Source of the DNA: a virus
Lineage: Duplodnaviria > Heunggongvirae > Uroviricota > Caudoviricetes
Virus record (IMG/VR): IMGVR_UViG_3300045988_024527
Location: 29,796 to 93,795 of that record
Length of the DNA stretch: 64,000 nucleotides
Strand: one strand, 5' to 3'
This document shows, piece after piece, positions 1,903 to 3,730 of this stretch. Position 1 is the first letter of the stretch. Every line of letters starts with the position of its first letter. Both the position numbers and the translations under genes were made by a program. Under the pieces are notes generated by a model, which searched no databases, was not told where the DNA came from, and worked only from the letters and a program-made list of their open reading frames with translations.

Positions 1903-2289
1903 AATGACCTCAAAGTTATATTAAATCTTGTATTACGTTGAGTATAAAAATAAGCTATAACACCTGACTTGTCAACAGATTTTATAGCTTATTTGGCAGA
2001 TTTTTTATAAGGCTACTGCCATCCTTCCATACCAAGCCCTGCCGAACCGAACCATGCTTTGCCATACCGGACAATACCTGACTAGACATCACTTAAAAAT
2101 CCTCTTAGAAGACTCTTAAGTGATGTAATCGAATTTTTATGTAGTTTCGATTAACTACCCATACCAAGCCTAACCTGACCGCACCAAACTTTACAACACC
2201 ACACCATACCTGACCATAACAAACCTCATTAAAAGACCCTGTTTAAAGACCTTTTAAAAAGGAGCCTCCGAAGAGGCTACCTAGTCAAC
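1903..2289. repeat. repeat-rich intergenic region (copy 1) with hairpin and A/C-rich short repeats
   Basis: shares hairpin CATCACTTAA-N19-TTAAGTGATG, CTCATTAAAAGACCCT..TTTAAAGACCTTTTAAAAAGG and CCATACCAAGCC-type repeats with 3336-3730. Confidence 0.7.
2087..2125 (-). promoter_or_regulatory. conserved stem-loop (10 bp perfect inverted repeat)
   Basis: catcacttaa...ttaagtgatg; near-identical copy at 3627-3665. Confidence 0.6.
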
Positions 2290-2730
2290 TTAGAAAGGTT
2301 TTCTACGTTGCTTGTTAATGTTAGCTTTCATAGCAGCTAAATGGTTTTGCTGTTCAATCAGTCGTGAACGTTCTTGATGACTAAGTGCCATAGTGTTCAC
2401 ATTCTCAATTGCTTGAGTGGCTTGTTTTAAAGCACGACCAATCTTACCAGACATTTTACGTTTTGCAATAGTTGCTTGATGTTTAGGTTCAACCACACGA
2501 TAACCAACACCCATTGAAGCAACCAGATAAATCTTCTCTTCTTTAAGAAGTTTCTCAATAAACTTCTCAAGTCGGTTTAGACGTGTAAGTGCATAAGCCT
2601 TCATTTCATCTTCGTACTTAACAATGTCACCTTGATAAGTTGGCTTCACAATACCTAAGAAGGTGTCCATCTCAGAATGTGATACAGTGTCACCGTAACT
2701 AAACTTTGCTGCTAATGCTTTTGTATTCAT
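2290..2730 (-). CDS. hypothetical protein
   Basis: 146 aa ORF. Confidence 0.5.
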   Translation of the reverse strand: MNTKALAAKFSYGDTVSHSEMDTFLGIVKPTYQGDIVKYEDEMKAYALTRLNRLEKFIEKLLKEEKIYLVASMGVGYRVVEPKHQATIAKRKMSGKIGRALKQATQAIENVNTMALSHQERSRLIEQQNHLAAMKANINKQRRKPF

Positions 2731-2732
2731 AA

Positions 2733-3335
2733 TTAAACATTACCTTCTGAAATAACTTCTACAGAAAAACGACCAAAGCGTGGACGCCAATCACCTACAC
2801 CACAAAGGTTACCAGCATTTTCCAGAACCATCAGGAGTTCCTCTTTGGTGATTTGCTCTTCATCGAACATCAAACCGAACTCTACAGACCAGTCGCGGAA
2901 GATTGGACGGTAGCTCATAACTCGTGCTGTACCAATCTTAACAGACTTAGCATAGATAAAGTCTGGATTCTTAGCAAGTTCTTGTGGGTTTGCTGGACAG
3001 TTCTTGATAGTCATTGGGAAGACTACATCTGTCAGCATAATGGCTCGGTCAATCACCTTACCAAGTTTGTTGAGTTTCGCACCAGACTTGATGCAAGCCT
3101 CAATCATCTCACCGTTCATAACAAAACCTAGCTGCTCATCGTAGTAACAAGAAGTTACCAGTTGGCTTTCTGCTAAGAGCGCATAGTCTTCGTCGGTCTT
3201 TTTACGTTTACTGGACAGAGACTTGTGATATTTTGTCAGAGGGTTTAATGGGTCTGACAGTGTATCAGCGTGGCTCAGGAAAGGACGAGTACCAGTGATT
3301 TTGATATTTAACAGTTTCATAGCATTTAGCTCCAC
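2733..3335 (-). CDS. hypothetical protein
   Basis: 200 aa ORF. Confidence 0.5.
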
Positions 3336-3730
3336 ACTTTAGTTGATTGTTAAGTTGTTTGTAAAGAACCCTCAACAGAAGACTCTTTAGAAACTTGGTA
3401 GATTTTTAATGTGGCTACTACCATCCACCCATACCAGACCTAACTACACCTCACCCCACCTGACCCATACCTCGCATTACCATACCAAACCAGACCCCAC
3501 CTCATTAAAAGACCCTCTTAAAGACCTTTTAAAAAGGTAAGTCTCATTTTAATGTAGCTGAGACTAACTACCCACACCAAACCATAGCATACATCGCATT
3601 ACCGGACAGAACCATACTTTACCAGACATCACTTAAAAACCCTCTTAGAAGACTCTTAAGTGATGCTGGTGAGTACCCGTTGGTTTATGCTGCTCAGTAT
3701 ACTCACCAAATTTTCTATGTCAACAACTTT
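3336..3730. repeat. repeat-rich intergenic region (copy 2), paralogous to 1903-2289
   Basis: same hairpin (3627-3665) and A/C-rich repeat families; minus-strand reading is GGTNTGG-rich. Confidence 0.7.

Follow-up and report, generated by a model that had tools for sequence, protein, structure and literature searches.

What purpose do two long spacers without protein-coding genes serve in the compact operon of a phage? We asked this question of the IMG/VR virus record IMGVR_UViG_3300045988_024527 (Caudoviricetes), of which the stretch at positions 29,796 to 93,795, 64,000 nucleotides (nt) in length, was analyzed and is called the window here. A sequence-only reading of the window had flagged two regions of a minus-strand operon, 1903-2289 and 3336-3730, as duplicated untranslated regions and had proposed that they are structured RNA or protein-binding arrays. 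Our analysis indicates that this Felix O1-like phage almost certainly carries a type II VIPR (Viral Interference Programmable Repeat) system, whose guide-RNA arrays are the two spacers.

VIPR, first described in 2026, is a relative of CRISPR with which phages silence DNA under the guidance of RNA; the account given here is that of two preprints (bioRxiv 10.64898/2026.04.26.720920, 10.64898/2026.04.26.720927). According to it, the system consists of an ancestral RAMP protein of ~20 kDa, Vipr, an accessory gene, vap, and guide RNAs of ~100 nt (vrRNAs), each of which carries 9-16 YNNGG repeats and a conserved 3' tail of ~40 nt that folds into a pseudoknot in the SUSP1 clade, the clade defined by Vipr identity above 90%. 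Vipr polymerizes into a filament, one protomer to each repeat, in which the GGY bases are held, and the two variable bases (NN) pair with double-stranded DNA, skipping one target base in three, in most cases the one at codon wobble. An R-loop then forms from the pseudoknot end and transcription is silenced. In phage SUSP1, separate vrRNAs of ~100 nt were detected, co-purified with Vipr and silenced transcription, and perturbing the GGY bases abolished silencing. Natural guides of the SUSP1 clade were reported to converge on a satellite in E. coli genomes.

Four guide modules flank vipr and vap1

The source phage is Felix O1-like (Felixounavirus, Ounavirinae), and 260 phage records match window positions 1500-4900 at 80-99% identity, mostly 90-95%. 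The flagged regions are the spacers between a DNA ligase gene and a gene of 195 amino acids (aa) (3336-3730) and between a 146-aa gene and a 127-aa gene (1903-2289). Their claimed similarity held up, with 75% column identity in a global alignment of one spacer against the other, and no open reading frame (ORF) longer than 43 aa, hidden or otherwise, was found in either spacer. They are not simple duplicates, however: repeat and profile searches showed that each spacer is made up of two paralogous modules in tandem, 128-143 nt long and read from the minus (gene-sense) strand. On that strand each module consists of a hairpin of 38-39 nt with an 18-bp stem, then 11-14 GGYNN pentamers, then a pseudoknot tail of 36 nt. 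Between the two pairs of modules lies an operon of two genes, vipr and vap1, and the minus-strand order of the locus is promoter, vr1, vr2, vipr, vap1, terminator, vr3, vr4, where vr1 to vr4 are the vrRNAs. The modules are guide-RNA genes and not untranslated regions of the operon.

Within the modules, GG recurs on the minus strand at a strict period of 5 nt, which is what the strings of GGTATGG and GGTTTGG noticed earlier represent. Across all 64 kb of the window, runs with at least 6 of 10 in-phase CC on the plus strand were confined to 2007-2092, 2139-2234 and 3414-3530, and no equivalent in-phase GG run was found on the plus strand. The periodicity is thus far beyond chance and strand-specific. 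It was weakest in the fourth module (3538-3665), in which only 5 of the 11 pentamers begin with canonical GGY. Both halves of the proposal of structured RNA or protein-binding arrays hold, at the level of RNA: the GGYNN tract is the array for Vipr, and the 3' end is a pseudoknot supported by covariation. The general interpretation of the sequence-only reading was sound, but the 5-nt period, the presence of two modules in each region and the guide-RNA nature of the modules had been missed.

A profile was built from 37 members of the 195-aa family, which has more than 500 relatives; the single solved structure that it matched was PDB 36pp ('SUSP1 Vipr protein'), at E=1.7e-80. The 195-aa protein is 98.5% identical to that of phiSUSP1 over 195 aa, as determined by tblastn against the SUSP1 locus (L018), and the 146-aa protein Vap1 is 99.3% identical to the product of the phiSUSP1 gene in the same position. 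An AlphaFold model of Vipr (pLDDT 95) gave Csm3/Cas7 RAMPs as its best matches among solved structures in Foldseek (E ~1e-4 to Csm3). The residues listed in the VIPR preprints as contacting GGY or the skipped base are kept (H17, K33, E71, M72, R138, C173, D177, W178 and R179), with T175 replaced by V. A DNA-binding fold is predicted for Vap1. No Pfam domain was found in Vipr or Vap1, nor in the two targeted ORFs of 184 and 236 aa described below. We conclude that the system is one already known and that the locus is a near-identical member of the SUSP1 clade. An Rfam scan of positions 1800-3900 returned no family at gathering score and only chance-level matches at E up to 10; Rfam has no model for vrRNA.

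The guides were described from 22 genomes, which gave 66 unique sequences. In their pentamers the first three positions were occupied by G (80%), G (96%) and Y (99%), followed by two positions with entropies of 1.96 and 1.93 bits, and the number of repeats per guide was 9-19 with a median of 12. In natural guides about 20% of the units have T or A at the first G (TGY/AGY). The first G of GGY may therefore be dispensable, and tolerance of T or A there would relax the published motif to NGY. The last repeat, GGTAT, adjoins the tail, is conserved in 40 of the 66 guides and is unmatched in the vr3 target, and for these reasons we treated it as part of the handle. The 3' tail falls into four position-specific classes, and where the classes differ, the changes compensate one another in each stem of an H-type pseudoknot (S1, 4 bp; S2, 6-7 bp). 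In the alignment 90.8% of cells were paired, compared with 25-42% in slid controls, and 9 of the 12 pairs had changed on both sides.

Of the four guides, only two were seen again in other phages of the sample, vr3 in locus L017 and vr1 in L014; the L014 guide differs from vr1 by one base, in a GGY position, and has the same NN set. On the minus strand vr1 (3574-3628) and vr2 (3431-3501) have in common the segment GGTAATGCGA[T/G]GTATG, and vr2 is shifted by 1 nt directly after it. Because of this common segment and the register shift that follows it, recombination between the two guides is suggested. Similar mosaics of guide halves were seen in other phages.

The association of modules with vipr extends beyond the source phage. 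In all of 21 related loci, taken from four GenBank records and 17 IMG/VR contigs, the modules are confined to the same two spacers next to vipr and vap, with 1-3 modules per spacer and 116-164 nt per module; two of the IMG/VR contigs agree with the AYO145A and wV8 records in both length and module pattern, so that the number of independent genomes is probably below 21. Six further loci encode a Vipr homologue of 37-40% identity, and five of the six carry sense-strand (GGTNN)n tracts that directly flank the homologue and its 148-aa neighbour, from which we conclude that the arrays travel with vipr across deep divergence. In these five (L023-L027) the long GGTNN tracts abut the genes (in L027 at 2865-2975, 3553-3800 and 4254-4320) and have no hairpin or pseudoknot tail of the SUSP1 type; a GC-rich, terminator-like hairpin precedes the first tract in L027. 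The sixth locus, L022, has the homologue but no array within 3 kb of it. Vap1 and the 148-aa gene product at the same position in L027 showed no significant similarity (BLASTP E=3.3). The older genome papers on Felix O1 and UAB_Phi87 do not describe the repeats, and the wV8 record has only a 58-nt 'DR_4' label on them. With this identification, about 800 bp of 'intergenic DNA', in hundreds of Felix O1-like records unannotated or misannotated as promoters, terminators or 'DR_4', become four guide-RNA genes.

Predicted targets in a satellite-like element of E. coli

We asked whether the guides match DNA under the published criterion, at least 80% NN match by the 1-nt-skip rule with the skipped base at codon wobble. 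For vr3, repeats 3-12 of 13 were converted into a gapped search pattern with 20 specified bases. This pattern matched one Escherichia albertii contig and 15 metagenome contigs, all in the same coding sequence, and two other sequences by chance; the latter, in Burkholderiales and Paucilactobacillus (21/26, with stop codons), were rejected. When the first 12 repeats were considered, all 24 of 24 NN bases matched in three contigs, while the best of 200 shuffled guides reached 19. The site lies in a 184-aa ORF of an E. coli element and encodes the peptide KYCANLTTICM. Copies of the site differ from one another at exactly the skipped bases (GTA/GTG, AAA/AAG, TAC/TAT), all of them third codon positions.

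For vr4 the best match (17-18/22) lies within the 184-aa ORF as well and keeps its frame in all variants of the element, and that of vr1 (18/20) is in the neighbouring 236-aa ORF of the same element; in both, the skipped base is at wobble. In L054 the predicted vr3 site is at 11603-11638 and the vr4 site at ~11771-11803. The 18/20 copies of the vr1 site are in the metagenome loci L044, L048, L049 and L051, and the homologous site in L056 (~9679-9708) reaches 16/20. Among the 66 guides of the clade, 36 reached at least 88% NN match in the element loci, for example 30/32, 28/30 and 27/28, compared with maxima of 20-22 for shuffled guides. The published 1-nt-skip code was thus independently reproduced from raw sequence. 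These matches indicate that the guides of the source phage, like those of SUSP1, are aimed at an integrative satellite-like element, vr3 and vr4 at the 184-aa ORF and vr1 at the 236-aa ORF.

No self-targeting was seen: full-length guides matched the 64-kb window, which is not the whole genome, at 68-75% at best, and exact 20-base skip patterns of vr3 and vr4 gave no match in IMG/VR. A 16-base pattern from a guide common to six phages gave eight IMG/VR matches, which we rejected because their number was about that expected by chance, the skipped base was not at wobble and the matches extended poorly. No match to the vr3 and vr4 modules was found by blastn in E. coli genomes, with a query that did not include tail type c, the type of the satellite vrRNA.

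The target element is an island of ~11.4 kb that sits in yecE (DUF72) or next to tonB. Among its genes are those of a large serine recombinase, a Dit-like baseplate protein and a tape-measure protein, besides several small ORFs; the best phage matches of the tape-measure protein are from Felixounavirus (29% identity over the full length, E ~1e-70). Of 5,426 complete E. coli genomes, 479 (~9%) contain the element core, in every case in the chromosome; strains 1297KP, ECONIH4 and TW11681 are among the carriers. These features fit the 'satellite' of the preprint. Thus vr1, vr3 and vr4 each receive a predicted target in an element carried by about 9% of complete E. coli genomes, a matter of relevance to host range and to the use of Felixounavirus in therapy or biocontrol.

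The element has a vrRNA of its own at 13490-13710 of L054 (E. coli 1297KP), with a sigma-70 promoter (TTGACG-17-TATAAT), 13 GGYNN repeats and an intrinsic terminator, and the first 34 of the 36 nt of its tail are identical to the phage type-c tail. No vipr gene was found in the element, so its vrRNA would need the Vipr of a helper phage. The best 1-nt-skip match of this satellite vrRNA (21-22/24, chance expectation ~1e-4) is to host DNA between cmoB and torZ, ~2.3 kb outside the element (L054 ~18140-18175, and also in L057, L058 and L042); against the phage window it reached only 16/24. One copy of the element contains an annotated 'AP2/ERF' gene (L055 13588-14112). A similar gene lies in the window at 6124-6657 on the minus strand, between the DNA polymerase gene and small ORFs, where a 177-aa ORF looks, by eye, like a putative homing endonuclease of the HNH/AP2 type.

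If the steps given in the preprints apply to the source phage, a Vipr protomer would sit on each GGY and build a helical filament along the vrRNA. The exposed NN bases would then pair with one strand of the double-stranded target, skipping every third base, usually the wobble base, and the R-loop would spread from the pseudoknot end toward the 5' end and block transcription of the target.

The inter-guide hairpin and competing explanations

The 10-bp-stem hairpin of the sequence-only reading corresponds to CATCACTTAA...TTAAGTGATG at 2087-2125 and 3627-3665, in which the stem of the sense RNA reaches 18 bp, and its second motif, AAAAGACC..TTTAAAGACC, is the plus-strand view of another variant of the same hairpin (2224-2262 and 3500-3537). 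We call this hairpin, in both types, H1. It precedes every guide in the phage arrays, and all Felixounavirus loci keep a truncated copy after the last of the upstream guides. In the 18-bp stem 92.6% of cells were paired over 18 variants, six pairs had changed on both sides and three G.U pairs were invariant; the mean minimum free energy (MFE) was -12.0 kcal/mol for the sense and -6.0 kcal/mol for the antisense strand. Because of the invariant G.U pairs and the lower sense MFE, H1 is an RNA structure of the sense transcript. Annotations based on TransTermHP label H1 hairpins as terminators. H1 is not followed by a U-tract, it is missing from the solo vrRNA of the satellite, which has its own promoter and terminator, and the mature RNAs of SUSP1 are ~100 nt, the size of repeats plus tail. 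For these three reasons we infer that H1 is removed and serves as a processing or insulation signal that separates mature vrRNAs of ~100 nt cut from a longer transcript. As a more specific and tentative suggestion, which we hold at somewhat less than even chances, H1 might exist specifically for maturation, for instance as an RNase III-type site at which the polycistronic arrays are cut into ~100-nt guides in the manner of CRISPR repeat processing. The available text of the preprints (10.64898/2026.04.26.720920, 10.64898/2026.04.26.720927) does not describe H1. In three related phages the hairpin after the first downstream guide is split by an unrelated insert (CATCACTTAAGAGTCTTTAAATTATATTCGATAGAGTATCTCATAGGGT...), giving longer spacers (L001 ~1260-1300, L012 ~4180-4230, L013 ~4175-4225).

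Several points weigh against the reading of the spacers as four working guide-RNA genes. That the four RNAs are expressed and bound by Vipr in the source phage we infer from near-identity to SUSP1. No sigma-70 promoter is evident between the vap1 terminator and vr3. The vr4 match (82%) equals that of the best shuffled control, and its support comes mainly from the in-frame placement in the same ORF as vr3. No target above background was found for vr2, even with its halves placed -1 to +4 nt apart. Finally, vr1, with its degenerate GGY bases, and vr2, with its register shift and lack of a target, may be impaired.

These last points lead to the alternative that survives best, namely that the VIPR locus works only in part, vr1 and vr2 being in decay and vr3 and perhaps vr4 being effective. 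The canonical GGY content of vr1 is in the lowest class of the 66 guides, vr1 and vr2 have a common segment with a register shift in vr2, vr2 is without a target, and GGY perturbation abolishes silencing (10.64898/2026.04.26.720920, 10.64898/2026.04.26.720927). On the other hand, TGY and AGY are frequent in natural guides, where position 2 remains G in 96% of units, and vr1 still matches the element at 18/20 and has its near-identical counterpart with the same NN set in L014. We regard partial decay as possible but doubtful.

A reading of the pentamer arrays as DNA-level elements, either iterons or protein-binding sites of a replication origin or an R-loop-prone origin within the replication module, would agree with their position between ligase and polymerase genes, with short-period repeats next to hairpins and with a G-rich non-template strand that could favour R-loops. 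However, the three invariant G.U pairs of H1 become C.A mismatches on the other strand, where the MFE is half that of the sense strand, and the NN bases are hypervariable among near-identical phages, the opposite of what a binding site would show. Moreover, the NN bases spell perfect gapped matches to a foreign element, and the adjacent protein is a RAMP RNA binder. A DNA-level origin is thus extremely improbable and effectively refuted.

It is equally improbable that the arrays act in cis, as leader or trailer RNAs regulating the operon, for example by TRAP-like attenuation with a ring protein on spaced triplets. The G-rich triplets with 2-nt spacing do resemble a TRAP binding site and alternative hairpins are visible in the tail, but these hairpins are the two stems of one pseudoknot, both supported by covariation, and 9-19 repeats do not fit a ring of fixed size. 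In addition, separate RNAs of ~100 nt were detected in SUSP1, as reported in the preprint text (10.64898/2026.04.26.720920, 10.64898/2026.04.26.720927), and the guides match targets in trans. The strand-specific G.U pairing, the hypervariable NN bases and the RAMP protein led us to set aside, as candidates, a TRAP-like ring binder, plus-strand Rho rut sites, G-quadruplexes, primase sites and an R-loop origin.

The features of the VIPR locus are collected in the table. The promoter at 3696-3723 probably starts the vr1-vr2-vipr-vap1 transcript, and the inverted repeat at 1947-1994 marks the end of the locus. The neighbouring genes encode the ligase, a helix-turn-helix regulator, a polymerase and small ORFs.

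Table. Features of the VIPR locus and its borders in window coordinates; pentamers and NN bases are given as read on the minus strand.
Feature	Position	Strand	Remarks
127-aa ORF, next gene beyond the VIPR locus	1519-1902	-	
Inverted repeat around the promoter TTGACA-17-TATTTT of the 1519-1902 gene	1947-1994	-	annotated promoter in AYO145A and ASO1B
vrRNA vr4	1993-2088	-	12 pentamers 2029-2088, NN = CT CA AT CC AT AA AT TC TC AG TT AT; tail 1993-2028
Hairpin H1 type 1, between vr3 and vr4	2087-2125	-	full 18-bp pairing, MFE -21.1 kcal/mol
vrRNA vr3	2126-2225	-	13 pentamers 2161-2225, NN = TT AT CA AT GT GT AA TT GC CA TA TT AT; tail 2126-2160
Hairpin H1 type 2, preceding vr3	2224-2262	-	
Intrinsic terminator, after vap1	2263-2278	-	AGCCTCTTCGGAGGCT then CCTTTTT
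vap1 accessory gene, 146 aa, directly downstream of vipr	2290-2730	-	phrog_5926
vipr gene, 195 aa, RAMP-fold RNA-binding protein	2733-3320	-	
Truncated H1-like hairpin, between vr2 tail and vipr ribosome-binding site	3361-3394	-	GTTTCTAAAGAGTCTTCTGTTGAGGGTTCTTTAC; structure read from sequence
vrRNA vr2	3395-3501	-	14 pentamers 3431-3501 with 1-nt register shift (GGTAT-G-GGTCA); pseudoknot tail 3395-3430
Hairpin H1 type 2, between vr1 and vr2	3500-3537	-	CCTTTTTAAAAGG...TTTTAATGAGG
vrRNA vr1	3538-3628	-	11 pentamers 3574-3628, NN = CT AA AT TC CC AA GA AT AT TT GT; pseudoknot tail 3538-3573
Hairpin H1 type 1, preceding vr1	3627-3665	-	CATCACTTAA...TTAAGTGATG
Sigma-70-type promoter TTGACA-16-TATACT	3696-3723	-	11/12 consensus matches; just downstream of ligase gene; same site annotated as promoter in AYO145A
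DNA ligase gene	3731-4831	-	

Two observations concern the far end of the window. Nine to ten tRNA genes (Pro, Glu, Met, Asn, Tyr, Asp, Lys, Met, Ile and one weak prediction), typical of Felix O1-like phages, lie on the plus strand at 57404-60002. At 63712-63813 on the plus strand Rfam reports RNAI, the antisense RNA of ColE1 (77 bits), and the surrounding ~0.8 kb (~62981-63815) matches ColE1-type plasmid origins in vector-bearing records and no Felixounavirus. This end of the window may therefore derive from a plasmid or vector, or from a chimeric join.

Comparison with known systems

The closest relative is the type II VIPR system of SUSP1. Besides the near-identity of Vipr and Vap1, the two loci have the same gene order with arrays on both sides of the operon, the same GGY/NN pentamer design (11-14 repeats here and 9-16 in the reported range) and the same classes of 36-nt pseudoknot tail. 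The natural target reported in the preprint text is also of the same kind, a satellite-like E. coli element with structural genes homologous to those of its helper. The layout of the guides differs, with two upstream and two downstream in the source phage and one upstream and three downstream in SUSP1. Unlike SUSP1, the source phage has other NN content, several degenerate GGY units and one frameshifted guide.

The backbones of class 1 CRISPR-Cas, Cas7/Csm3 on crRNA, have in common with VIPR a RAMP fold with G-loop and thumb, one protomer per RNA repeat unit, periodic base flipping and RNA-guided recognition of foreign nucleic acid. A VIPR guide carries information in two of every 5 nt, non-contiguously, whereas class 1 CRISPR-Cas uses five of every six. 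VIPR also differs from CRISPR-Cas in silencing without a nuclease and in being encoded by a virulent phage. A repeat search found no CRISPR repeat-spacer array, only the four paralogous modules and the 5-nt period, and no cas1, cas2 or other cas gene was found among the neighbouring genes, so that the RAMP fold alone is held in common.

The Vibrio phage ICP1 is likewise a lytic phage with an RNA-guided system aimed at a parasitic chromosomal satellite (PLE). ICP1, however, carries a full type I-F CRISPR-Cas system with adaptation and DNA destruction, while the phage analyzed here has a single RAMP protein and hard-wired pentamer guides. The Bacillus TRAP protein on its (G/U)AG-repeat RNA resembles Vipr on a vrRNA in another way: an oligomer reads spaced trinucleotides, with 2-3 variable nt between them, on single-stranded RNA. 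TRAP differs from it as a closed 11-mer ring of unrelated fold that acts in cis on the leader of its own operon, where the spacers carry no information.

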